NCBI GenBank assembly: GCA_018238625.1
Contig: JABCSY010000058.1
Location: forward strand, 1 to 24,568
Length of the DNA: 24,568 nt
Origin: Promethearchaeota archaeon
GTDB taxonomy: Archaea; Asgardarchaeota; Lokiarchaeia; Sigyniarchaeales; SOKP01
Reading direction: 5' to 3'
Shown here: positions 4,329-16,479 of the stretch, piece by piece
How the letters are laid out: each line of letters begins with the position of its first letter
How positions within the stretch are numbered: position 1 is the stretch's first letter
Made by a program: the position numbers and the translations under genes
Notes under the pieces: model-generated
What the model saw: the letters and a program-made list of their open reading frames with translations, nothing else
The model's database searches: none
Told to the model about the DNA's origin: nothing

Positions 4329-4850
4329 TTAAGTAGATTCTTTTCCTTTAAACGCATTTAACAAGTTTTTTAGGTTTATGTCTTGAATGAGATTTTTCAA
4401 GATTGCTTTTCCTAAAGGAGTAATTTTTATGATATCAAGATCTTCTATTTTTCTTAAATAATCGTTTTCAATTAGGAATTCAACATCAGTTGCCCAGACT
4501 TCTTTGAAAATTTCTTTTAGGTCGCTAATCTTTATGTTTTCGTCTACCTCCTTGCCAAGAGCAAGTATCAACGCCAAAGTACCGTATTGAGAAGGCGTAA
4601 TGTTGTCGTCTTTACCCTCAGAGGTTAAAACATAGAACTTTTGATCTAAAAAATTAGATTTTATGAATTCAAAACCAATTTTCTTTAAATTTAAATAAAC
4701 TGAGCTTATGATTTGTTCAAAATCGAAATTTTTACTTAAATTCTGGAGGTCCTCTTCTCGAATCATTTTTTGAGGGCTCGTTAAAATAATTTTAGTAATG
4801 TTTTTTACCGCTTCTTCAAAATTTGTATTATCCATATTTTTTCTTATCAA
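4329..4850 (-). CDS. Tandem winged-helix protein, KITE-like (Nse1/Nse3-MAGE/ScpB type)
   Basis: WH-A: FEQIISSVYLNLKKIGFEFIK...KFYVLTS. WH-B: YGTLALILAL...VEFLIENDYLRK...IKITPLGKAIL. Directly downstream of the SMC-like gene (4-nt overlap if the TTG start is used; alternative ATG at 4835). Confidence 0.6.
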   Translation of the reverse strand: MIRKNMDNTNFEEAVKNITKIILTSPQKMIREEDLQNLSKNFDFEQIISSVYLNLKKIGFEFIKSNFLDQKFYVLTSEGKDDNITPSQYGTLALILALGKEVDENIKISDLKEIFKEVWATDVEFLIENDYLRKIEDLDIIKITPLGKAILKNLIQDINLKNLLNAFKGKEST

Positions 4851-6496
4851 CTCTCTTCAACTTTTAAAACTTTTAAATTCTCAATTTCTTTTTTTAATTC
4901 TAAATTTGACATAAGAAAGATTAGTTTAAAATTAGATAGATTATCATTTGTTTCGAATATTGGTAAAATCTTTCTAATAGTTCTGTAAATGGAACCACCT
5001 TTATTATAAATATTAGGGATGAATAAATTTGAAAACAATATATTTTCAGATTTTAAAAGGATTTTAATAGAGAGGAAAAAAACAACTATGAAATAAATTT
5101 TTTCGGGAGTTGTTAATCCTTCAAAATTGACTTTCTCTTTGTAATTTCGTATAAAATTAGTTTGGATAAGAAAAGCCATATTATCGTTGCTAATTACTAG
5201 CTGATAAAGAATTTCTAGATGAATTTCTTTTAAGAAGCTATTCAATACAATTTCAAGATCGTGAATAATAGTCTCAAATTTCTTAAAACTTTCAAAACTT
5301 TTTGCAACCTCTTTTTCATTGGTAGAAATATTGATTTTATCGTGACCAATTTTCAAAACATTATCAAATTCTCTCAATTTTTCAATTATTCGAGTTAAGT
5401 CGCTCAAATTATGAATGTTAAATGAATCTTCAGGGATGGAGATTTTATCTAAGTCTGAGATCGTTTTTTCAATCTCATCTTCAATTTCTACGGAGTTTCG
5501 TACTAATTTTAACACTAAACTTTCAGGTTCTACGTCTGGAACTGTTTTATTATCGTTTCTTTTTTTTTCGTAGTTAGATTTTACTTCCTTTATTCTTATT
5601 TCATCTTTTTTTATTGTTTCTAAGAGGTTCTCATAATCATTTTTGTATAACTCATAATGAGGAGTAAGGTTTTCTAGTTTTACTTTAGTTTCATTTGTGC
5701 TTGATTGAATTTGTTTAATTTCGTATTGAGCTTCTTTCGCTTTTTTTTGAAGAGCTCGTATCTTTTCGGCGTTAGTAAGATTTACTTTAATTCCTAATTT
5801 TGCAATTGAGTCGTTATTATCTTCATTTAAAGAACCCTCGATTTGTCGCGTAATTCTATTAATTTGACTGAAACATTCTTTTTTAGTTTCGTTTTGAAAT
5901 CGAATCTGCTGAGCGTGATTTCTTAATTCTTTTTTTATTTGATCAACCTGATTTTTTTGTTGAAAATAATCCTCTTCTAAATAATTCAATTCTTTCTTGT
6001 TTTTAATTATAGCCTCATTTAATTTTTTAATTAAGTCTATAATTGATGCTAGATCGCTTGATTTTTTGTAAAGTTTTGACAATTCTAATTCTTCAGATAA
6101 CTGATTCTTTTTTTCCGTTAGGAAGATATATCTGAAAATCTTCAATAATGTTTCAGTAAGCGAGTTAAAATCAGAAAAAGCTTCTAAATTATATTCCATG
6201 ATTTTGCTATAGTTAGATAAATAATCCAAGATATTTAGAGATTTATCTAGACTAGATAAATTAGCGTTTTGGTTTTGAAAAAGTTTAATAAATTTTTTAA
6301 CAGGGATTAGCTCTAAATTGTCAATAATTTCTAAGAAATCTTTATTGTGATATAGATTTAGAACGCCTTTTTTGAATTTACCGAGAATTAACGTAAATCT
6401 ATCTTCTACTAATATTTCTTTCGTTCCAACAGTAAGCTTAAAATTATTTAGACTAATATGTAAATTCACTCCTGATTCTTTTTTAACCAGATTCAA
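4847..6496 (-). CDS. Short SMC/Rad50-like coiled-coil protein with degenerate ABC-ATPase motifs
   Basis: N-terminal ISLNNFK...FTLILGKFKKG resembles the SMC N-head. A long central coiled coil follows. C-terminal FEGLTTPEKIYFIVVFFLSI...NILFSNLF...FKLIFLMSN occupies the signature, Walker B and H-loop positions. Confidence 0.6.
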   Translation of the reverse strand: MNLVKKESGVNLHISLNNFKLTVGTKEILVEDRFTLILGKFKKGVLNLYHNKDFLEIIDNLELIPVKKFIKLFQNQNANLSSLDKSLNILDYLSNYSKIMEYNLEAFSDFNSLTETLLKIFRYIFLTEKKNQLSEELELSKLYKKSSDLASIIDLIKKLNEAIIKNKKELNYLEEDYFQQKNQVDQIKKELRNHAQQIRFQNETKKECFSQINRITRQIEGSLNEDNNDSIAKLGIKVNLTNAEKIRALQKKAKEAQYEIKQIQSSTNETKVKLENLTPHYELYKNDYENLLETIKKDEIRIKEVKSNYEKKRNDNKTVPDVEPESLVLKLVRNSVEIEDEIEKTISDLDKISIPEDSFNIHNLSDLTRIIEKLREFDNVLKIGHDKINISTNEKEVAKSFESFKKFETIIHDLEIVLNSFLKEIHLEILYQLVISNDNMAFLIQTNFIRNYKEKVNFEGLTTPEKIYFIVVFFLSIKILLKSENILFSNLFIPNIYNKGGSIYRTIRKILPIFETNDNLSNFKLIFLMSNLELKKEIENLKVLKVEES

Positions 6497-7520
6497 AATG
6501 ATTTTTGAATTTTTTGTATTCTTTTTCTTTTTTTTTCTTTCTTTCTCTAATTAATTCGATAGGGTCTCTATCATCATCTTTTTGATTTAAATAGTTTTCT
6601 TTAAAATTTTTATCAAATTGCAATTTAAACTTTTCAATTTTCTCTGAAACTTCGTCTGAAAGTTCCATTTTCTTTTGATTTCCATCTACGATAACATCAG
6701 TTAATTTTTCACGCTTTTCTTTTCGCATTCTTCTTTCAAATTCTTTAGGTGAGAATTTCAAATAGTTTTTATAGGTTTCTGTTTGTTCTTCTTGATTTTT
6801 TTTTAATTCTTCGATTTCACTTTTTTCTTTTCTTTTATTTACAAATTCTTTTCTATCTAATAATTCTTGTTTAGTTAGCTTATTCTCAACAGTTTGTAAG
6901 AATTCTTCGTAAGTTAACTCAGGATTTAAATAAAATTGCTTTTCAAATTCCTTAATAAAAGAAGAGTCTATACCGTCAGGAATTCGACTTAATTCGTCTT
7001 TTAATCTTTTATCTATTAACTTATTATTGTATTTCCTTAATTGTTCGACAGATGTTAAAAAGAGAGAGTTTCGGTTTAGAGCATCTATTAATTCTAGCCA
7101 TTGATTTATTCCAATGGAAGAAATATATGATGTTTGACTAATAATTTTACTAATTTTTCTATTTTCAATTAAATCCAAACCAATAATTTTGGTATTAATT
7201 TCATTTAAACTAATTAGTTTTAGATGATCTTTAAAGTCATTTTTGTATTTATTAAGAAGTTTGTTTTGTAAGTCTAGAAATCTATTTATGTTATTGTTTG
7301 AGATGTTTTCTAAATTTTTATAGATAGTACTTAGAACTTTGGTTAGTTCATTTAATTGATTACTAAATGATTCATCGTCGAAATATTGGGAAGTTAATCG
7401 TTTTTCTGCTTCTAATTTTTCAGCGATATTAGTTATTTGATTAACTTTTCCTTGAAGATTTTCTATAGGAGATGTAAATTCTCTAATTTTTTCGAGGTTA
7501 AATAATTGATTTTCCATCAT
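6483..7520 (-). CDS. Hypothetical charged, helical/coiled-coil protein
   Basis: 345-aa ORF with a K/E-rich C-terminal half. Overlaps the start of the SMC-like gene by 14 nt. No family recognised. Confidence 0.75.
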   Translation of the reverse strand: MMENQLFNLEKIREFTSPIENLQGKVNQITNIAEKLEAEKRLTSQYFDDESFSNQLNELTKVLSTIYKNLENISNNNINRFLDLQNKLLNKYKNDFKDHLKLISLNEINTKIIGLDLIENRKISKIISQTSYISSIGINQWLELIDALNRNSLFLTSVEQLRKYNNKLIDKRLKDELSRIPDGIDSSFIKEFEKQFYLNPELTYEEFLQTVENKLTKQELLDRKEFVNKRKEKSEIEELKKNQEEQTETYKNYLKFSPKEFERRMRKEKREKLTDVIVDGNQKKMELSDEVSEKIEKFKLQFDKNFKENYLNQKDDDRDPIELIRERKKKKEKEYKKFKNHFESG

Positions 7521-7567
7521 TTTTAGCTAAAAATTATATTTTGAAATTAAAATCTTCTAATGTGTTA

Positions 7568-8686
7568 TTATATCTCTGGTGGACTAAATAATCTTTTTTT
7601 ATTATTTTCAGTTCTTTTCGATCCCGTATATCCTTTTCTAGGATTGCTTAAAATGTCTTGCCTCTCAACGTGAATTGCGGTACCTCCAACTAATTTTAAT
7701 GAATTATAAAAATGTTCATAAGTTAAACGTTCTGAATCAATAGCCTTCAATAAAGATACTTTCGTACCCCTTTCGATATCTGAGCCAGAATATCCAATAG
7801 TTAATTCAAGTAAGCCCATGGCTTTGCTCTTTTTGTTGAGTTCATCCCATAATATATTGTCGCTAAACTCAGTGATGGTATGACCTAATTTGCTTTCTAA
7901 GCTTATTGTAATTGCCTTAAGCCTTTCGTACTCATCATTTAAACTAACATAAATTGATTTGTCAACGCCAATTTTTGCTTTTTCTACCTTACTAAGAAAA
8001 GATTCAATGATCTGCTTTCTTATATGAAAATTGGGGAATTCAAAGCTAAAATGAAAAGTAAATCGTCTCCAAATAGCTGAATCTAATTGGTTTTGATGAT
8101 TTGTTGCTCCAAATATCGCTAAAGGTACGCCTTGATAATTTATTCTGTCGATTGCTTGTAAAAATGATATAACCGCACGTTTAATTTCACCAACTTCATG
8201 AATGTTTGATCTTTCAGAGCCAATAGAATCAATTTCATCGAAAAATAATATAAAAGCACCTCTTTCTTTCGCGATTTCAGCTGCTAAATCCACAACATTT
8301 CTAATTTGTTTAATTGTATCTCCTAATAATGGTGATACCAATCTATCAGTTTCTACTACACAAATTGGTATTTCATAATGCTTCGCAAATCCTCTCGTAA
8401 GAGAAGTCTTCCCCGTGCCTGGGGGGCCATATAAAAGAACTGTTAAACTGGGGTTAAGTTTTGCTCCTTTTAACTGTTCCGTAAATTCTTTATATTTTTT
8501 TAAAGCTTTGAAAAAATCATGTAATATTTCTTTTTTAACCTCATTTCCTAAAATATCGTCAATATTATCTTGAATGTCGAAAGGAAAATACACTGCTCCA
8601 TATTTACCTATTCTATTCTTAATTACATCATCGGTAAATGTTTTTATTTCTTCCACTTCTTCATTTGAATTGCTAATTTTTCTCAT
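7568..8686 (-). CDS. Single-domain classic-clade AAA+ ATPase
   Basis: Walker A GPPGTGKT, Walker B ILFFDEID, and SRH with arginine fingers GATNHQNQLDSAIWRRF. Lid motif GYSGSDIE. Confidence 0.93.
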   Translation of the reverse strand: MRKISNSNEEVEEIKTFTDDVIKNRIGKYGAVYFPFDIQDNIDDILGNEVKKEILHDFFKALKKYKEFTEQLKGAKLNPSLTVLLYGPPGTGKTSLTRGFAKHYEIPICVVETDRLVSPLLGDTIKQIRNVVDLAAEIAKERGAFILFFDEIDSIGSERSNIHEVGEIKRAVISFLQAIDRINYQGVPLAIFGATNHQNQLDSAIWRRFTFHFSFEFPNFHIRKQIIESFLSKVEKAKIGVDKSIYVSLNDEYERLKAITISLESKLGHTITEFSDNILWDELNKKSKAMGLLELTIGYSGSDIERGTKVSLLKAIDSERLTYEHFYNSLKLVGGTAIHVERQDILSNPRKGYTGSKRTENNKKRLFSPPEI

Positions 8687-8702
8687 CTCATTTTATTGTA
8701 AT

Positions 8703-10010
8703 TTAATTATTTTTTCTTTCTTTATCAAATTTTTCACAATAATCTGCAATTTCGTTAATAAATTCTTTAAGATTATCAATTTGAGCACCAATAAAGTTAA
8801 AAATTTCTTTTCTATATTGAGGGGAATCTCTTATCTTCAGTTTATCTAAACCTAAATAATTTGGAAAACATACGAGCTTCATTAAATAAGGTAGTACTTT
8901 TTCATTTGTTTGTAAATCTTTAAATATTGGATAAAAAATATTTTGATCGGATAATTTCCATTTTAAAATTCCCATGTAAATTAGAAAGGCAAAATTCATT
9001 GAAATCCAATTTATAAATTCTTTTGATAAAAATCCTCTTCTTTGTGAAGCTAACGCTAAATAATACAAATTTAATGTTTCATTGCTCAACTGTGGTAATA
9101 ATCTTATTTTTCCATCGGATTGCTTATTTTCACGTATGAAATTGTTTTCTAACATTATATCGACTAAATCTTCTTTAGGTGCGAGGAAAATTTCGTCAAT
9201 AACACGGAGTCCAATACGTTCGGCAATTTGATTTATAGCTTCTTCCTCGGCATTAGCGATTGAATCAATGTATGGGTTAAAAACTTCAGTTTTTAAAACC
9301 ATAGGAAGTTCTTGATTTCCTCTTTCAGGGAATTCACCAAAATTTGGATCTAAATTGTAAAGAGAAGTTATATTGTTGATTAACTTAGAAACTTTCGGAG
9401 ACATACCAGGAATTTCAAAAAAGTCTGATCTTTCTAATTTATCCCTGTAATACGTGTGAGGTTGAAGCATATGTCGTTGGCACTCATAAAAATTCGAAGA
9501 GTATTTTAGTAATTTATTATAAATAATTATTTTATTTCTTCCTCGTGGAAACAATCTTTTTTCTATGTACTTCGTTAAAACATATAAAAATGTTTTTTCT
9601 AAACTCGATTCGTCTGGATTGGTAATATGTCGCAAAACATTCAATGCCCCAATGGATTCGTATAAAAATTCAATAATATAATCTTTTATATCAATGATTG
9701 GAATGGTTTCCCGATACTTCAATATAAAATCTTTTATTATATCATAAACATTTGATCTATACATCGTATAAAATTCTGATAACGCTCTTACTTTTCGGAT
9801 ATTTCTTTTTTCTTCTTCTTGGCGAATTTTATCCAGGATTTCAATATCTAGTAGTAAATCAGCGTCTAATTCGATAATTTTTCTCCTCGTTTCTCTAAGA
9901 ATTGGGCGCATATGACTTATAAAAGTTAAATATCTAGGTAGAATATCAGTCCATTTCTCCCTTTTTCTACCTGATTTTACCATTCTAGTAGATTTTTTTT
10001 TATAACTCAT
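8703..10010 (-). CDS. Hypothetical helical protein with basic N-terminus and possible winged-helix segment
   Basis: 435-aa ORF in the operon. LVDIMLENNFIRENKQSDGKIRLLP resembles a helix plus wing. Family not recognised. Confidence 0.75.
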   Translation of the reverse strand: MSYKKKSTRMVKSGRKREKWTDILPRYLTFISHMRPILRETRRKIIELDADLLLDIEILDKIRQEEEKRNIRKVRALSEFYTMYRSNVYDIIKDFILKYRETIPIIDIKDYIIEFLYESIGALNVLRHITNPDESSLEKTFLYVLTKYIEKRLFPRGRNKIIIYNKLLKYSSNFYECQRHMLQPHTYYRDKLERSDFFEIPGMSPKVSKLINNITSLYNLDPNFGEFPERGNQELPMVLKTEVFNPYIDSIANAEEEAINQIAERIGLRVIDEIFLAPKEDLVDIMLENNFIRENKQSDGKIRLLPQLSNETLNLYYLALASQRRGFLSKEFINWISMNFAFLIYMGILKWKLSDQNIFYPIFKDLQTNEKVLPYLMKLVCFPNYLGLDKLKIRDSPQYRKEIFNFIGAQIDNLKEFINEIADYCEKFDKERKNN

Positions 10011-10037
10011 AGTTCTCGCTCTTTTTTTTAAACTATA

Positions 10038-11186
10038 TTAACTTTCATCGTACCCTACTACTATTTCTGTGAATATGTTAGCGATCTCCACGAAGATTGG
10101 TATTTCTACACGCACCAACTCTCCGAGAATCCACTTGTTTACATCTTTCAACAAGAAACGTACTTGATTTATTATTTTCTTATTAATTTCAGAGTCTATT
10201 ATTTTGGTTAACCATAAACCTCCCCCTAACCTATAAGCAATAATTTTTATTAATGGTTCAAAAAGAGGTTCTAAGACTTGTCTCATCATCCACGATTTTG
10301 GAATGACACTCATATTATTTTCGTCAAAATTAGGATCGTTGAGAATGGGGTTTGTCTCATCAACAGATAGTTTTGGCATAAAGCTTAATAATAGAATTAG
10401 AGCAAATATAGCAGTGATGCCGTTTATTGTATAAGAGCCCCCAATCTTCTCAATATCGTCTCTATTTATTGATACATTGGCTAAAAACATACAAATAAAA
10501 ACATTTCTGTCGAAGGCTTCAGAGACATAAGTATAACCTAATTCCTCATTAATTATTAAATATTTTTCTTTGAGAATTTCAATAATATCATCTGGAAATG
10601 TGTAAAAAGTGTAAACCTTCTCTTCACTTTTTCTAACATCCTTTTTTACAATCAACTCTTTTGAGACCAAACCAAACATTTTAACAAGTTCTTCCAGTTG
10701 GTTTTTTATGTAATGACGAGGCTTATTCGGATCGCCAAACATGGCATAAAATTGATGATCAATAATATGAAAATCATTTCTTTTACTAAAGGCTTCTACC
10801 ATCCTATTTATTATGGGTCCTTGTGTTCCTGAAGCGATTGCTTTCGCTTTTGATGTTACAAATCCATTTAATAACTCATTTATAATAAAATCTTGTTCAT
10901 GAGTTCTAGACTTTAATATTTTATCAAAAGCTTCAGAAAAAATTTTTGTATTTGGAAAAAATGCGTTTTGAATTTTATCATTTATTGATTTCAAAAAAAT
11001 ATCACCGTTATTCTTTGGAAAGTGGAGTTTCATATTATTCAGTCTTTGTACTAGAGCTTCTTTTGCTCCTGGGATGTTTTCCGCATCTCTTTTCTCCAAT
11101 TCATCGATTGCCTTTTCTAACCCTTTATCAAATTGCTGAAGTAATTCTTTCCAAGTAGAATCTTGAATTTCTGCCATTTTTTTCAC
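10038..11186 (-). CDS. Hypothetical protein with probable central winged-helix domain
   Basis: 382-aa ORF. RHYIKNQLEELVKMFGLVSKE...VYTFYTFPDDIIEIL fits a recognition helix plus wing hairpin. Confidence 0.75.
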   Translation of the reverse strand: MKKMAEIQDSTWKELLQQFDKGLEKAIDELEKRDAENIPGAKEALVQRLNNMKLHFPKNNGDIFLKSINDKIQNAFFPNTKIFSEAFDKILKSRTHEQDFIINELLNGFVTSKAKAIASGTQGPIINRMVEAFSKRNDFHIIDHQFYAMFGDPNKPRHYIKNQLEELVKMFGLVSKELIVKKDVRKSEEKVYTFYTFPDDIIEILKEKYLIINEELGYTYVSEAFDRNVFICMFLANVSINRDDIEKIGGSYTINGITAIFALILLLSFMPKLSVDETNPILNDPNFDENNMSVIPKSWMMRQVLEPLFEPLIKIIAYRLGGGLWLTKIIDSEINKKIINQVRFLLKDVNKWILGELVRVEIPIFVEIANIFTEIVVGYDES

Positions 11187-11210
11187 TATAGATTATAATT
11201 CTTTTATTAT

Positions 11211-12164
11211 TTACCAATTTAATTCTGCTACTATTTTCTTTAAGGCATCAACTAATGGATTTATAAGCTTTTTATCGTAAAGGTTCGGAGAACTTACTCC
11301 TCTTTGGGCTTTCCAACCCATTTGTGTTCCTTCCCCCATTTCTCTTTTTCCAAATTTTAAAATGTTGCTTAGATCTCGCATCCACCAATAAAATCTTAAC
11401 CATTTTTTGTTTGGGTTATCTTTAGAATGAATAACTGCCAAAGCTTTCCATTCCCCCATTAACCACTTTACTGTAATGCCGCTTTCAGGCAAATAATAAT
11501 TTATGGGAAAATTAGCTTGAAAATTTAAATCGAGATCTTTAGAAATTATATTAAAGATCGGCTGGTTATACCCTTCTAGTACGACGATTTCACCACAAAA
11601 CTGGCACTCATAATGAGATTTCATTTTTTTCATTTTTTTTTGACATTTTGGGCATGTCCGGTTTTCAATAATTCTATATTTGATAATGTCTAAGTTTTTT
11701 TCTTTTTCTAAGGTATCTTTTGTTTTGGGTTCTTGTTTTCCATACTTCCCTTTCCAAGTCCATATTTCGTCGAAAGAATCATTAATTTTTTCTAATGCGA
11801 TAATAACATTTTTCAGAACGTCCTTATCATAAATTTTAAACATCCCCGCGTGTTGATAACTTTTCCACCAAGAAAGTCTTACGTATTTCTCAGTTTTTAA
11901 GTAAGCACTATGGCAAATCAGGACCGCGAATAACCGTGTATCGCTCTTATTTATTACAATCCCTTTTTCTGCTACTTCATAAGTTTTATTCAATGATACA
12001 TTTTTATGAAACCACTCTCCATCTATAAAAGTTCCTATAGTGGATTCTTCTTCTTTTTTTTCTACCTCTATACTCTTTTCCTTAATGATTTTCTTACATT
12101 GTGGGCATTCAAAAATTCCTGGAATTAAGGGTTTCATTTCAACATTACATGTAGAACATTTCAT
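11211..12164 (-). CDS. Double zinc-ribbon protein with internal duplication
   Basis: CSTC..CPQC and CPKC..CQFC ribbons. Each is followed by a similar beta-rich unit (KYVRLSWW / KWLRFYWW; IYDKDVLKNVIIALEKI / LYDKKLINPLVDALKKI). Confidence 0.8.
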   Translation of the reverse strand: MKCSTCNVEMKPLIPGIFECPQCKKIIKEKSIEVEKKEEESTIGTFIDGEWFHKNVSLNKTYEVAEKGIVINKSDTRLFAVLICHSAYLKTEKYVRLSWWKSYQHAGMFKIYDKDVLKNVIIALEKINDSFDEIWTWKGKYGKQEPKTKDTLEKEKNLDIIKYRIIENRTCPKCQKKMKKMKSHYECQFCGEIVVLEGYNQPIFNIISKDLDLNFQANFPINYYLPESGITVKWLMGEWKALAVIHSKDNPNKKWLRFYWWMRDLSNILKFGKREMGEGTQMGWKAQRGVSSPNLYDKKLINPLVDALKKIVAELNW

Positions 12165-12166
12165 AT

Positions 12167-13267
12167 TTAGTCATCATTAATGGTTATAATATACCTTTCA
12201 TAATCTAAATTTAATAATTTTAATTCTTTCTTTGTAAATCTTGTAATCTTACTATTAATTTTTACTAAATCTTCTCTAAGATCAATTAAAGCATTCTGGA
12301 TATTATTCACAATGTCATCTTCGTTAAAAGACACTTTCTCGATGAATTCAAGATAATTATACTTTTTACCTTTCCCTGAATAATATAATTTCATTTCTAA
12401 TAATTTGTTTTCAATTTGTTTCATCTGAAATCTAAGGTTTAACAAAGATAATAAATTAGAATTCCAACTTTTAAAGATTAGATTTTCTTTATCAATTTCA
12501 TCGTAATTAAATTTATCTGGAAGCTCTACTTTTTCATCTTTAAGAAATTGAATAATATCTTTATTTTCTTCAATAGCTTTATTTGTTTTTTTTAAAACGA
12601 TTTTATTTTTCAATTTGGGCTCAAAGATTTCAATAAATTCATCAATTTTATCCTTTATCTCCAAAAATCTTTGGTAAAACCCTTCGATTGTAATCTCAAT
12701 TTTAATAGCTTGAAAAATATTTCCATATTGATCCAAAATATAATATAGATCATCTGATATTCTAAAATCATAACCCCCTATTTCAAAAACAAATGGGTGG
12801 ATAATGTTACCTATTTCGCACCTAACTCCTTTTAATTTATTTAAAGCCAGATTAAAATTCCTCCTGGTTAGAAACTTAAATTTTTTGTTTATTAGTAAAA
12901 ATAATGTATGATCTGGCACCGAAATTTTATTATTTTCTATTGTTACTGTCTCTTCTCCTAACCGGATTATGAAATCACCGTCTTTTTGTTCAAATTCTCT
13001 CATACTTCTTATATTTTTAATTAAACCTAAATCAATAACAATTTCAATAAATTCTTTATTCCAAAAGGTTAAAATATTATCTTTATATATCTCATCTAAT
13101 ACTAGAACCTTCTCATATGATTCTATGAGTTCTTGATTACTTAAATCCTTGAATAAATCATTTCTGATGACATATAAAAATAAAATGATATATCTCATAT
13201 CAATGTCGTCAAGAATCGTCTCTATCAAGTTCTTATCGTAATCCATCGACAAACTCGTATGTTCCAT
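12167..13267 (-). CDS. Hypothetical protein: winged-helix-like middle and helical-bundle C-terminus; first gene of the operon
   Basis: 366-aa ORF. LTRRNFNLALNKLKG...FVFEIGGYDFRISDD is wHTH-like and is followed by long amphipathic helices. Confidence 0.75.
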   Translation of the reverse strand: MEHTSLSMDYDKNLIETILDDIDMRYIILFLYVIRNDLFKDLSNQELIESYEKVLVLDEIYKDNILTFWNKEFIEIVIDLGLIKNIRSMREFEQKDGDFIIRLGEETVTIENNKISVPDHTLFLLINKKFKFLTRRNFNLALNKLKGVRCEIGNIIHPFVFEIGGYDFRISDDLYYILDQYGNIFQAIKIEITIEGFYQRFLEIKDKIDEFIEIFEPKLKNKIVLKKTNKAIEENKDIIQFLKDEKVELPDKFNYDEIDKENLIFKSWNSNLLSLLNLRFQMKQIENKLLEMKLYYSGKGKKYNYLEFIEKVSFNEDDIVNNIQNALIDLREDLVKINSKITRFTKKELKLLNLDYERYIITINDD

Positions 13268-13472: not shown

Positions 13473-14054
13473 ATGGGAAGAAGAAAAAGAAAGCAACAAT
13501 CTTATAAAAGAGTCAAAACAGTCCCAAAAATTTTTACTTGCCCAAATTGTGGGGAAAAATCAATAAAAGTAGAAAATTTACGAAAAAGTGTTATAGCTAC
13601 AGTGAAATGTGGTCATTGCGGTTTAACAAAGGAAGTTCTGGTTAATTCTATTTCAGAACCTGTTGATGCTTTTGGTGATTTTATCGATATTCATTATGCT
13701 GATCAAGAACTTCAGAGATTAGAAAAAAGCATTGGAAAATTAATAAAAAAAAACGAATGGGGAGAACTTGCACTATCCTACTCAATTTTATCGGATATTT
13801 GTAAACTTAAAGCTGTTCAAGCTTTAGAAGACGAAGATAAAGTAGATCTTGATGAAGTAAATAAATGGAAATTTAAAGCTGAAGAATATAAAAGGCGTGA
13901 AAGAGATGCTCTACTTCAATTAGACACGCTTGAATTGGAAAAAGGAATTAGAACAGACGAAGAATCTCTATTTTCAGAGCATGATGAGAGCGATATGAAA
14001 AAAGAAAAAAAAATCGAAGATATCTTTGACGATCCTGGTTTTCTTGAATTTTAA
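13473..14054 (+). CDS. elf1: Transcription elongation factor Elf1 with long C-terminal extension
   Basis: The basic N-terminus MGRRKRK, FTCPNCG...CGHCG Zn ribbon and EPVDAFGDFID are Elf1 hallmarks. About 115 extra residues follow. Confidence 0.9.
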   Translation: MGRRKRKQQSYKRVKTVPKIFTCPNCGEKSIKVENLRKSVIATVKCGHCGLTKEVLVNSISEPVDAFGDFIDIHYADQELQRLEKSIGKLIKKNEWGELALSYSILSDICKLKAVQALEDEDKVDLDEVNKWKFKAEEYKRRERDALLQLDTLELEKGIRTDEESLFSEHDESDMKKEKKIEDIFDDPGFLEF

Positions 14055-14125: not shown

Positions 14126-15856
14126 TCAATTATTTAGGATATGGGATTTAACTTTAGGCGGAATGTGTTTCCAAATAGGAAGATTTAAGATTAAATTGAA
14201 AAAGCGAGTTCGATTCAATTTTTTTTTTAAAATAAAATAACTCCAGTTGTAAAATGCTAATTTATTAAAGAGATTCATTAAGTTCACACCAAATAGGTTA
14301 TATTTTGAAGTTAAAAAACTTGCTAAATAAGCACCTAACCGCTTATTTCGTGGAACTGATTCAGGATATACTGATTCTGATAGAGGTCTATTGAAAATTT
14401 CATAAATTGAAAAAATAGGTATAAGATTATCTAAATGTTCGTTTACAATTCTATTATAATTTGAGTTCTCTAAGGATAAAGCAGAAAGCTCATTTAATTT
14501 TTTTAAGGCAAGATTAAAGTGTTGTTCCTTAAAGTAAAGCCACATAATTCCCATCTTATCTCTTAATTTCACCAACTCAGCTATAACTTCCTTTTCTTTA
14601 AAAGAAAATGAGTTTTTTATCTCGAAATGTGTTATATAAAGCAAAAATATTGAATAAATAGAAGTTTTATCAAATTCAGTTAAATTATCACTTTCTTTGA
14701 CCTTTTGGAGATCAATTTTATTATTTGATACGTTATGGATAGTATGAGTATATAATGGTGTTATCCATAACATTTTCAAAATTTTTTCCATAAGTCGAAT
14801 ATGGAGCGTATATTCTTCAATTTTAGAAAATTTTTTAGATCGTTTCAAACTGGGAACAGAAAAGGTTTTAGATTGATCGATTCTAAATTTAAATGTATCG
14901 ATTCTTTTTAACTTATTAATCAATTCTTTTCTTTGTTTTTTATTTATTAAAATCTTTTCAATTAGCAACTTCTTTATTGATATTAACTTCTTTATGTAGA
15001 TATAGAAATCTACATTGTACTTTTTTACAATATAATCGTTTGTTATTAATGGAATGTTGATTGTTTGTTTTTTGGTTTTAGTCTCAATGCTCATTGCATG
15101 GTCCCCTATAGAATATGAAAACGTAATTGTTTCAAGAGCTTCTTCTAAACTGGAATATACACCTAATTTTTTTGGATCATGGGTGAAATAACCGTGCAAG
15201 AGAGTATCGATTCCTTTAAACTTATTATTTTCATATTTTGAAATAATAACAGATTCAAATTCACCAGGATGATGCCTTTTAATGCCGTAACGTTTACCCA
15301 CAAGAAGAATTGCTTGATTAGCTCTATGATATACAGTATGAGACCACCTAAACAATGGTTCTAATATTTTTCCAATTGTTAATAAATACCCATAAAATTC
15401 TGGTCCAAAATAGATAGGGAATCCAAAACCTCGAGATGTTGAAAATGTAAATTGGAAAACATTCCTTGTTTTCTCACCTTTTAGAAATCCGGGAAATTTA
15501 TAGTGTAAAGCTAATCTGGGATAAAGTGCTCCCAAACCCAAATTCATCCACATTTCAAATAGAATTATGCTGTCAGGAAATTTGAATGAATCTTTTTTGA
15601 TTAAGAAATCGTTTCTCGATGTGTTTAACGCAGTTGGAATGGCATAGAGCCATTCTTTATTGCTTTCTAAAGACTTCAACCGGTTTTTAAACTTTTTTAC
15701 CAATAATCGTTTATTCTGGTTTTGTACTGCAGCTTTTTTATAATAATAATTATTCAGAACTCTAAAGAGCGAAGTAATTTCTAGTATTTGTCTTTGAAGA
15801 TCATGAGCTACTTTTACTTTAATAACGCCTGAATTCTTATTTGAGGATTGCTGCAC
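14126..15856 (-). CDS. Hypothetical protein (576 aa, basic)
   Basis: Long ORF with GTG start and no recognised motif. N-terminal alpha/beta region, central coiled coil, helical C-terminus. Confidence 0.75.
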   Translation of the reverse strand: MQQSSNKNSGVIKVKVAHDLQRQILEITSLFRVLNNYYYKKAAVQNQNKRLLVKKFKNRLKSLESNKEWLYAIPTALNTSRNDFLIKKDSFKFPDSIILFEMWMNLGLGALYPRLALHYKFPGFLKGEKTRNVFQFTFSTSRGFGFPIYFGPEFYGYLLTIGKILEPLFRWSHTVYHRANQAILLVGKRYGIKRHHPGEFESVIISKYENNKFKGIDTLLHGYFTHDPKKLGVYSSLEEALETITFSYSIGDHAMSIETKTKKQTINIPLITNDYIVKKYNVDFYIYIKKLISIKKLLIEKILINKKQRKELINKLKRIDTFKFRIDQSKTFSVPSLKRSKKFSKIEEYTLHIRLMEKILKMLWITPLYTHTIHNVSNNKIDLQKVKESDNLTEFDKTSIYSIFLLYITHFEIKNSFSFKEKEVIAELVKLRDKMGIMWLYFKEQHFNLALKKLNELSALSLENSNYNRIVNEHLDNLIPIFSIYEIFNRPLSESVYPESVPRNKRLGAYLASFLTSKYNLFGVNLMNLFNKLAFYNWSYFILKKKLNRTRFFNLILNLPIWKHIPPKVKSHILNN

Positions 15857-16029
15857 TGAATTAACCGAATTAAAAACAATTAATTTCTTAAATTGATATA
15901 TATGTTTATCAATTTTAATCTTAATTGATTTTACCTATTCATATATTGAATTATTAAAAAGTGAAAATGAGATGTTTTTTATTCCTTATTGCCAAGTAAG
16001 TTCAATGAATTTAAAATTAAAATTGATTT

Positions 16030-16479
16030 TCATTGGGTGTTTCTTTTAGCGAACAAGGATTTTAACTCACCCATAATAGCACCTCTTAGACTTACAGGGC
16101 TGGCTGGACGGGCGCCTCCGGGACCTCCAGGTGGTGGCGGTGGACTTCCGGGTGGACCTCCAGGTGGACCTCCAGGTGGACCTCCAGGTGGCCCTGCCAT
16201 AGGTGGTGGGGCACTACTTGGGGCTGTGGGCGCTGCAATGACTGGGGCGGCCCCAACTCCTCTCGTTCTAAGTGCCGAAACATCATTATTTATGGAATTG
16301 ATTCGCGATTCTAATGTTGAAATTCTTTGACCAACAGCCGCTAAAGATTGATCTACTAAATCTGGTATCCTTAGAATCATTATCATCATTTTTTCAACAA
16401 CATCGCCAAATGTATTTAACTTTTCTTCAAGGGGGGCTTTTCTTGTTTCTTGCATGAAATTTGCGAAATCTTCGGCCAT
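16030..16479 (-). CDS. Coiled-coil plus proline-rich protein with C-terminal WH2/VASP-like amphipathic helix
   Basis: Heptads VGQRISTLESRINSINNDVSALR, then PPPMAGPPGGPPGGPPGGPPGSPPPPPGGPGG, then SLRGAIMGELKSLFAKRNTQ. ATG is preceded by purine-rich GAGAGAG. Confidence 0.8.
   Translation of the reverse strand: MAEDFANFMQETRKAPLEEKLNTFGDVVEKMMIMILRIPDLVDQSLAAVGQRISTLESRINSINNDVSALRTRGVGAAPVIAAPTAPSSAPPPMAGPPGGPPGGPPGGPPGSPPPPPGGPGGARPASPVSLRGAIMGELKSLFAKRNTQ
16139..16198. repeat. Coding 12-bp tandem repeat (GGTGGACCTCCA)
   Basis: Three perfect copies at 16151-16186 with one degenerate copy on each side. Encodes the GPPG/GGPP repeat of the 149-aa protein. Confidence 0.9.

Follow-up and report, generated by a model that had tools for sequence, protein, structure and literature searches.

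A widespread Asgard archaeal protein family with a coiled coil, a proline-rich linker and a conserved C-terminal helix shared with Arf/RagA-like GTPases

The DNA analysed here (the window, 24,568 nucleotides of contig JABCSY010000058.1 from the Promethearchaeota archaeon assembly GCA_018238625.1) carries on its minus strand, at positions 16030-16479, an open reading frame (ORF) with an ATG start that encodes a protein of 149 amino acids (aa). The protein consists of a conserved N-terminal module, a coiled coil, a disordered proline-rich linker and a short, nearly invariant helix at the C-terminus. It belongs to a family that is spread widely across Asgard archaea, and the same coil, linker and helix are found at the end of Arf/RagA-like GTPases encoded by the same genome. 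The protein is best viewed, with a probability of about one half, as an oligomeric adaptor that displays docking helices, a free-standing counterpart of the GTPase tail that acts in a membrane-remodelling network of small GTPases, BAR-like proteins and actin.

In the proposed mechanism, the N-terminal module and the heptads of the coil would pair or bundle several chains. Each chain would extend a floppy proline-rich arm tipped by the short helix, which would dock onto a conserved protein partner and not onto lipid. The single most likely partner of the helix would be the main actin of the organism, Lokiactin; direct binding to actin is a tentative proposal, with odds clearly below even.

Anatomy, conservation and spread of the family

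The initial annotation, made from the DNA sequence, had described a coiled coil followed by a proline-rich linker and a terminal helix. This layout was borne out: the ORF, the heptads, the GPPG and PPPPP stretches and the helix SLRGAIMGELKSLFAKR (residues 130-146 of the translation) are all as described, and the protein ends in ...GELKSLFAKRNTQ. The gene and its parts are the following.

16030..16479, minus strand: gene for the 149-aa protein, with the stop codon at 16030-16032; from the ORF listing and full-length homologues.
16345..16479, minus strand: residues 1-45, conserved N-terminal module with helices 2-14 and 17 onward and a conserved I-P-D kink at 38-40; from conserved columns and AlphaFold2.
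16258..16344, minus strand: residues 46-74, heptad coiled coil, part of a single long helix 17-74; read from the sequence.
16096..16257, minus strand: residues 75-128, disordered Pro/Gly-rich linker of variable length with four GPPG units (96-111) and PPPPP (113-117); predicted local distance difference test (pLDDT) below 50.
16139..16195, no strand assigned: 12-base tandem repeat encoding the GPPG units (Tandem Repeats Finder: 4.8 copies, 93% matches, score 93).
16033..16095, minus strand: residues 129-149, putative C-terminal docking helix VSLRGAIMGELKSLFAKRNTQ with the family core ELKxLF; from conservation and the predicted helix 131-148.

The AlphaFold2 model, based on 32 homologues, consists of helices 2-14 and 17-74 with a pLDDT of about 87-92, a disordered segment 75-130 with a pLDDT below 50, and a terminal helix 131-148 with a pLDDT of 70-78. 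Within the long helix, residues 46-70 form a clean run of three to four heptads (L46, V49, I53, L56, I60, I63, V67, L70). The local G+C content of the gene is 0.45, compared to 0.22-0.35 in the rest of the window, because of the Pro/Gly codons, including those of the 12-base tandem repeat. An ORF of 113 aa that runs antiparallel on the plus strand (15989..16330) is no more than a shadow of these codons.

The 149-aa ORF is a genuine gene and its family is widespread in Asgard archaea. A word-seeded search returned 195 relatives at an expectation value (E) ≤ 0.01. The 120 relatives listed are 47-89% identical, are all unnamed or annotated as "hypothetical", and carry Lokiarchaeota/Promethearchaeota or other Asgard labels. 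An exhaustive search of cluster representatives yielded 96 relatives at E ≤ 0.001, and 123 loci in species-representative genomes encode a relative. When a profile built from 35 divergent members was applied to 301 sampled Asgard genomes, 226 were matched at E ≤ 1e-5; the proportions were 75 of 90 for the high-quality genomes and 59 of 70 for genera. The genome of origin holds a single copy, as judged with the full-length profile. Tandem pairs of family genes occur in two genomes of the same class (L140, 5001-5393 and 5393-5836; L141, 82-471 and 596-973), which indicates local duplication of the family in some lineages. No description of the family was found in the literature search, outside of which lay the supplements of PMC12962969, of PMC11914678 and of the preprints.

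A weak hint of transcription comes from contigs of RNA libraries from two studies, which span positions 16270-16458 at about 94-99% identity (X1, 10 differences over 180 bases; X7, 2 over 169). These contigs stem from close relatives, and carry-over of DNA may account for them.

Conservation is concentrated at the two ends of the protein, with a linker of variable length in between. In the alignment of 32 sequences, the columns without any variation are F5, F8, P16, E18, K20, F24, G25, D26, E29, M32, L36 and I38 on the N-terminal side, and R124, P128, L131-I135, E138-K140, L142 and F143 on the C-terminal side. No other part of the family is as strongly conserved as the end helix, whose conservation among orthologues the initial annotation had made one touchstone of its proposal. 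Among the 35 divergent members, only E138 and K140 of the helix and P114 of the linker remain invariant, and L139 and F143 are at least 90% conserved; a 24-row alignment of the helix likewise shows E138 and K140 invariant and L139 and F143 at 90% or above. The family signature of the end helix is ELKxLF. The invariance of E138 and K140, together with the near-invariance of L139 and F143, would fit a specific contact with a protein.

The linker measures 10-104 aa across the family with a median proline fraction of 0.35, so that its richness in proline is conserved while its length is very variable. Runs of at least five prolines are found in 98 of 118 close relatives versus 14 of 54 distant ones. 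Long proline runs are therefore a trait of the Loki-type clade and not of the family.

The tail of Arf/RagA-like GTPases and the character of the end helix

When the genome of origin was searched with a profile of the N-terminal module, the 149-aa gene (E 2.5e-32) was followed by residues 322-368 of a 414-aa Arf/RagA-like GTPase (L120:1492-2736; E 4.4e-6). The C-terminus of this GTPase reads ...RTTVLNELKQLFEKKRKLNL. A second GTPase of the same genome, of 493 aa (L145), ends in ...PPPPPPKIAVG...RSEILSELKNMFVKRG. Both contain Arf and Gtr1_RagA domains. The proteins P0149 (426 aa) and P0182 (399 aa) are likewise Arf/Gtr1-RagA-like GTPases and carry this coil, linker and helix at their C-terminus, the alignment with P0149 spanning residues 15-147 of the query. 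Tail-bearing forms of 400-475 aa were detected with a helix-only profile in several other genomes (L114-L117).

In these Asgard GTPases, as in the 149-aa protein, a homologous coil is followed by a linker and by an end helix of the form [R]xx[IL]xxELKxxFxK[KR]. The 149-aa protein differs in that it lacks the G domain and the N-terminal helical region and has its own conserved first 15 residues; compared to the 414-aa GTPase, its linker is also longer and richer in proline. No mention of such a GTPase tail occurs in passages of PMC12962969, 10.1101/2024.02.28.582541 and PMC11914678. Since the tail is present on Arf/RagA-like GTPases of its own genome, the 149-aa protein, which would be the free-standing form of this tail, may recruit the partner of the GTPases or compete for it. 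By the same token, the shared tail suggests a place in the Asgard small-GTPase/BAR/actin network that remodels membranes.

The N-terminal module occurs in further fusions. Without the end helix, it is joined to Ras/Arf GTPases in P0154, P0172, P0217 and P0219, and it is fused to leucine-rich repeats in P0192. A gelsolin-like protein, P0159, carries it as well, again lacking the end helix: residues 155-211 are 56% identical to the 149-aa protein (E 2e-17), and for residues 27-149 the identity to a gelsolin-family protein from the genome of origin is 68% (E 1e-58). A word search for longer proteins returned, with the whole protein as query, only P0217, the 876-aa P0218, matched in a proline-rich part, and a fragment of a eukaryotic FH2 protein, matched via its proline tract; with residues 1-76 as query, it returned only P0217 and P0219. 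Among the fused forms searched, no fusion to profilin was found. A 243-aa ORF beside an actin paralogue of the genome of origin (C77:35513-36244), matched by the profile of the N-terminal module at E 0.046, was rejected as a family member, for it has neither proline arm nor end helix.

A helix at the end of a small GTPase may also serve as a membrane anchor. C-terminal membrane-targeting sequences of the MinD/FtsA type are short basic helices at the extreme C-terminus after a flexible linker, as is the end helix here, and in Ras and Rho proteins anchoring is the role of the hypervariable region, a role that the tail would play on the GTPases. The 149-aa protein would then be a tether, in which the basic helix targets the membrane, the proline arm is a spacer and the coil holds a GTPase or a BAR-like partner. 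The occurrence of the same tail on small GTPases, which need membrane anchors, speaks for this possibility, as does the BAR-like protein encoded next to the 149-aa protein, described below.

The physical character of the helix is divided on this point. The initial annotation had called it basic and amphipathic. It is basic, with a net charge of +3, and its 11-residue core (residues 135-145) is clearly amphipathic, with a helical moment of 0.59; both features suit a tether. Over an 18-residue window the moment does not exceed that of shuffled sequences on either scale (Eisenberg, 0.08 versus 0.27 ± 0.13 for shuffles; Fauchere-Pliska, 0.28 versus 0.23 ± 0.11, a value equalled by 31% of shuffles). 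On a helical wheel, R146 and R132, the latter conserved in at least 90% of the members, break up the hydrophobic face formed by L131, L142, I135, L139, F143 and M136. This broken face, the invariant Glu and Lys, which are unusual in a lipid-binding helix, and the 18-residue moment distinguish the helix from those of the MinD/FtsA type. Moreover, several members extend beyond the helix into an acidic tail, for example of seven consecutive D/E residues, with a tail charge as low as -6, and in P0192 and P0142 additional domains come after the helix, which lies internally. Taken together, these properties favour docking of the helix onto a protein over docking onto lipid. Asgard Arfs are reported in part of PMC11914678 to associate with membranes via amphipathic helices, and this lends the tether some plausibility; it is nevertheless considered improbable.

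Relation to actin and to known actin-assembly factors

Asgard archaea possess actin, profilins and gelsolins. The genome of origin encodes a Lokiactin of 381 aa (L001:1495-2640, minus strand; Pfam Actin, E 3e-132), along with further actin-family genes and proteins with gelsolin domains. Lokiactin is 88-100% identical across the order, and is for that reason a slowly changing target of the kind that the near-invariant end helix suggests. There are three high-scoring actin genes (L001, L002 and L003 on contigs C138, C16 and C47; Pfam Actin, E 1e-127 to 3e-132). Relative to the first, the other two show 83-85% identity; they could be paralogues or derive from a second strain, as contamination of the assembly is estimated at 7.6%. 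The Pfam Profilin family found no match in this genome, a result that is uninformative since it likewise found none in the control genomes (0 of 14).

The initial annotation had likened the architecture of the protein to that of WASP, WAVE and VASP and had proposed a candidate ancestral factor for actin elongation or nucleation promotion. As an Ena/VASP- or WAVE-like actin-assembly factor, it would oligomerise through the coil, recruit profilin-actin through the polyproline and bind G- or F-actin through the clustered end helices, thereby nucleating Lokiactin filaments or speeding their elongation. The layout agrees with this proposal, and so do the strong conservation of both the end helix and Lokiactin, the proline runs of the close relatives and the fusion of the N-terminal module to a gelsolin-like protein. 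The machineries that nucleate filaments in Asgard archaea are said, in part of PMC9433394, to be still undiscovered.

No sequence test places the protein among the WH2, Ena/VASP or WAVE/WASH proteins. The 149-aa protein matches no Pfam family at E ≤ 0.01 and no NCBIfam family. No WH2 (PF02205), EVH1 or WASP-type family was listed when 32 members were examined with hmmscan at E ≤ 10, a setting at which the HMMER filters remove most matches above E ~0.1; for EVH1/WH1 the negative result concerns the 25 families most often matched in the 32 members. An ESCRT-III helix of the MIM type was also considered and rejected: Leu and Arg are not spaced as such a helix would require, Snf7 is not among the families listed for the 32 members, and the 149-aa protein has no Pfam match at E ≤ 0.01. 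The sole actin-related Pfam name was CCDC53, matched in 4 of the 32 members with a best E of 0.018; it stood among families of coiled coils, for instance Baculo_PEP_C (23 of 32).

Profile searches of the PDB, which covered chains of at least 20 residues, matched coiled coils only, the best being trimeric adhesin stalk fusions (E 8.5e-5), and the BRICK1 chain 3p8c_E appeared at E 0.42. The similarities to CCDC53 and BRICK1, and with them the relation of the N-terminal coil to WAVE/WASH components that had been put forward for comparison, lie at the noise level of coiled coils. With the helix-only profile, no WH2, thymosin, VASP or arcadin chain was found in the PDB; the only match below E 0.001 was a designed coiled coil with AIQQELK heptads.

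The initial annotation was right to point out the absence of a canonical LKKV-type motif and of an acidic Trp tail. No LKK[TV] motif (L-[KR]-[KR]-[TV], as defined in part of PMC9433394) follows the end helix, and the predicted helix 131-148 continues to the C-terminus. There is no Trp anywhere in the 149-aa protein, hence no acidic-Trp tail, and the acidic tails observed in distant members are free of Trp.

Compared to Ena/VASP proteins, which comprise an EVH1 domain, a proline-rich region and an EVH2 domain with G- and F-actin sites and a tetramerising coil, the 149-aa protein likewise has a coil, a proline-rich stretch (four GPPG units and PPPPP) and a short basic helix, and the multivalent display of a binding helix would be the same working idea. 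The order of the parts is reversed, however, with the coil at the N-terminus (residues 17-74) and the helix at the C-terminus; an EVH1 domain is missing, searches of Pfam and the PDB gave no sequence similarity, and the long proline runs are not family-wide. With WAVE and WASH, it shares the order of N-terminal coil, proline-rich region and C-terminal helix, but it lacks a WH2 match, LKK[TV], a central region and the acidic Trp region of these proteins and of WASP.

The closest archaeal parallel to the docking proposed here is arcadin-2, the crenactin regulator of Pyrobaculum calidifontis, likewise a small archaeal protein that acts via its C-terminus, which binds in the hydrophobic groove of the archaeal actin (part of PMC5173319). 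This precedent counts in favour of an actin-binding end helix. Arcadin-2 differs in that it is part of the arcade cluster of crenarchaea and causes filaments to depolymerise, and in that it has neither a proline arm nor a link to GTPases; it was not matched in the PDB profile searches, which were confined to chains of 20 residues or more. On the basis of these comparisons, the family would work in principle like Ena/VASP or arcadin-2, yet it does not appear to be a member of either.

As regards profilin, the initial annotation had cautioned that binding of polyproline by Loki profilins was not assured. The caution was justified: Loki profilin-1 and -2 are reported in part of PMC8410842 not to bind a VASP polyproline peptide, whereas those of Heimdall and Thor bind polyproline weakly, the latter result being in favour of an assembly factor. 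Recruitment of profilin cannot be the core function of the family, because so few distant members have runs of at least five prolines and because the linker of the 414-aa GTPase is short and poor in proline. Nor is there an actin gene nearby within the window. An assembly factor of the Ena/VASP or WAVE kind is therefore regarded as unlikely.

A bolder proposal, about as doubtful, is that the family represents the missing actin-assembly factor of Asgard archaea. The coiled-coil hub would place several end helices in the barbed-end cleft of Lokiactin, thus nucleating filaments or riding and feeding their ends, while the tail-bearing Arf/RagA-like GTPases would couple their nucleotide switch to actin at BAR-shaped membranes. 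If true, this would be a pre-eukaryotic solution of independent origin that follows the logic of Ena/VASP and WH2 nucleators. A small family that is near-universal in the phylum, and that shares modules with small GTPases and a gelsolin-like protein, is among the few concrete and cheaply testable candidates for a link between GTPases, membranes and actin in the closest archaeal relatives of eukaryotes. Were the helix to bind actin, it would shed light on the origin of regulated actin assembly; were it to bind another partner, it would be a new docking motif of Asgard Arf/Rag-like GTPases.

The BAR-like neighbour and the genomic context

Two features lie directly upstream of the gene.

16480..16621, no strand assigned: AT-rich spacer of 142 bases between the upstream 207-aa gene and the 149-aa gene, from the sequence; about 140-150 bases are kept at related loci.
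16622..17245, minus strand: gene for the upstream neighbour, a 207-aa three-helix BAR-like protein; the start, at the fourth codon of the listed ORF, was fixed by alignment.

In 78 of the 80 related Loki-type loci, the 207-aa gene lies upstream of the family gene in the same orientation, at a distance of about 140-150 bases. Its product is 59-97% identical across these 78 loci and is more conserved than the 149-aa protein. RNA-library contigs of X1, X4 and X8 span the gene. The whole block is syntenic in the 80 related loci, with Pelota kept in 69, radical SAM in 75, Elf1 in 72 and the gene of a 576-aa protein in 55.

The 207-aa protein has no Pfam or NCBIfam match. Its AlphaFold2 model consists of three long helices with a pLDDT of 91.7. 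The best fold match is arfaptin, with a VIA-align Z of 13.2, a root-mean-square deviation of 5.1 over 186 residues and a TM of 0.56-0.61, followed by SNX1, Lsp1/Pil1, I-BAR, FAM92A and ACAP. The top Foldseek matches are BAR domains, none at E ≤ 0.001, and a Z of 13.2 can be reached by helical bundles by chance. Language-model leads (Atlas) to FAM92/BAR scored 0.76-0.78, under the 0.9 trust line.

The distant context was examined at 20 loci of family members from 14 genome families; the loci are not independent. A Ras-family small GTPase gene lies 1.4-4 kb from the family member at 9 of the 20 loci, representing 5 of the 14 genome families (L124, L125, L129, L131, L134, L135, L141, L142 and L143). 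The encoded proteins have about 170-186 aa, or 285 aa in L125. The nine were grouped by all-against-all BLASTP, and the three that were scanned against Pfam all belong to the Ras family. The background density of Ras-family genes is one per roughly 100-225 kb, as estimated from five genomes, three of which are not those behind L129, L131 and L134. This proximity is a hint and not a test, because of the dependence among the loci.

These data bear on another possible role, that of an accessory of the GTPase cycle. The end helix would dock on a regulator or effector, such as a roadblock- or longin-type protein or the BAR-like neighbour, or on the G domain, and the free protein would be a decoy or scaffold with no direct contact to actin or membrane. 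Such a role would explain the two tail-bearing GTPases of the genome of origin and the enrichment of Ras-family genes near distant members, and it would agree with the resemblance of the 207-aa neighbour to arfaptin, whose BAR domain has been solved with Rac1 and ARL1. A roadblock-like protein of the genome of origin that carries ELKELF near its C-terminus offers a further argument (L146, 157 aa, C36:38103-38576, minus strand; MAPKK1_Int/LAMTOR3 E 0.0027, below the cut-off). Its match to the end-helix profile is not significant and lies within noise (E 0.22), the BAR fold match is at chance level for helical bundles, and the BAR-like gene is missing at the distant loci, as detailed below. The accessory role is thus judged improbable, to the same degree as the membrane tether.

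Several observations weigh against the reading of the 149-aa protein as an adaptor in a GTPase/BAR/actin network. As for the protein itself, we infer oligomerisation from the heptads only. The helical moment of the end helix lies inside the loose amphipathic range of 0.236-0.636 given for Asgard Arfs in part of PMC11914678. Because it resembles generic coiled-coil heptads, the helix could also pack against the coil of the protein itself or against helical bundles of any kind. The link to gelsolin concerns the N-terminal module and not the end helix. The gelsolin-like protein of the genome of origin matches Pfam Gelsolin at the cut-off of 21 bits, and the Gelsolin scores obtained lie at or below it (14.6-20 bits with hmmscan, 22.8 in the genome search).

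The genomic context adds to these points. The 207-aa gene is absent within about 5 kb of all 20 distant family members (20/20), and it therefore belongs to the neighbourhood and not demonstrably to the system. No gene neighbour is common to the 20 distant loci, so that there is no phylum-wide gene partner; the immediate neighbours are unrelated genes, such as those for a tRNA intron endonuclease, a VTT-domain membrane protein and a phosphoglucomutase.

Data from Lokiarchaeum ossiferum bear on the adaptor reading in both directions. According to part of PMC13716822, an Arf GTPase (38.1 kDa, log2 fold change 1.34) was significantly enriched by co-immunoprecipitation with Lokiactin, along with one profilin and five gelsolins; the co-precipitate also contained two BAR proteins, for which the enrichment was not significant. 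This is an indirect link to the control of actin. On the other side, the Arf GTPase is smaller than the tail-bearing GTPases, and the orthologue of the 149-aa protein was not mapped in Supplementary Table 2 of PMC13716822.

The gene order in that table is Pelota (GNAMCCOK_02289), radical SAM (02290), a hypothetical protein (02291) and nucleoside diphosphate kinase (02292). The identity of the last two indicates that the local gene order differs in this organism. The protein named Bar1, one of those detected with Lokiactin (GNAMCCOK_01913; log2 fold change 0.94, P 0.09), has a mass of 24.73 kDa, against 24.29 kDa for the 207-aa neighbour, which is a match of mass and not an identification.

The other genes of the window include those for an Elf1 zinc ribbon, a Pelota/eRF1-type protein, an Lsm protein, radical-SAM enzymes and CutA. 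Directly downstream of the 149-aa gene, positions 14126-15856 (minus strand) encode a lysine-rich protein of 576 aa with a pI of 9.9 and no family match; at the 55 related loci where it is kept, its identity is 50-92%. The Elf1-type zinc-ribbon protein, of 193 aa, is encoded at 13473-14054 (plus strand) and has a long C-terminal extension, as the Elf1 domain spans residues 2-73 only. Positions 4329-13267 (minus strand) hold eight co-directional ORFs, all but one of which have no Pfam or NCBIfam family above the cut-off. One of them, of 549 aa, has weak matches to SMC/Rad50 coiled coils. The ORF that forms the exception lies at 7568-8686 and encodes an AAA ATPase of 372 aa; its top match in NCBIfam is to the anti-phage ATPase IteA (E 4e-49), at 167.6 bits far short of the cut-off of 510 bits.

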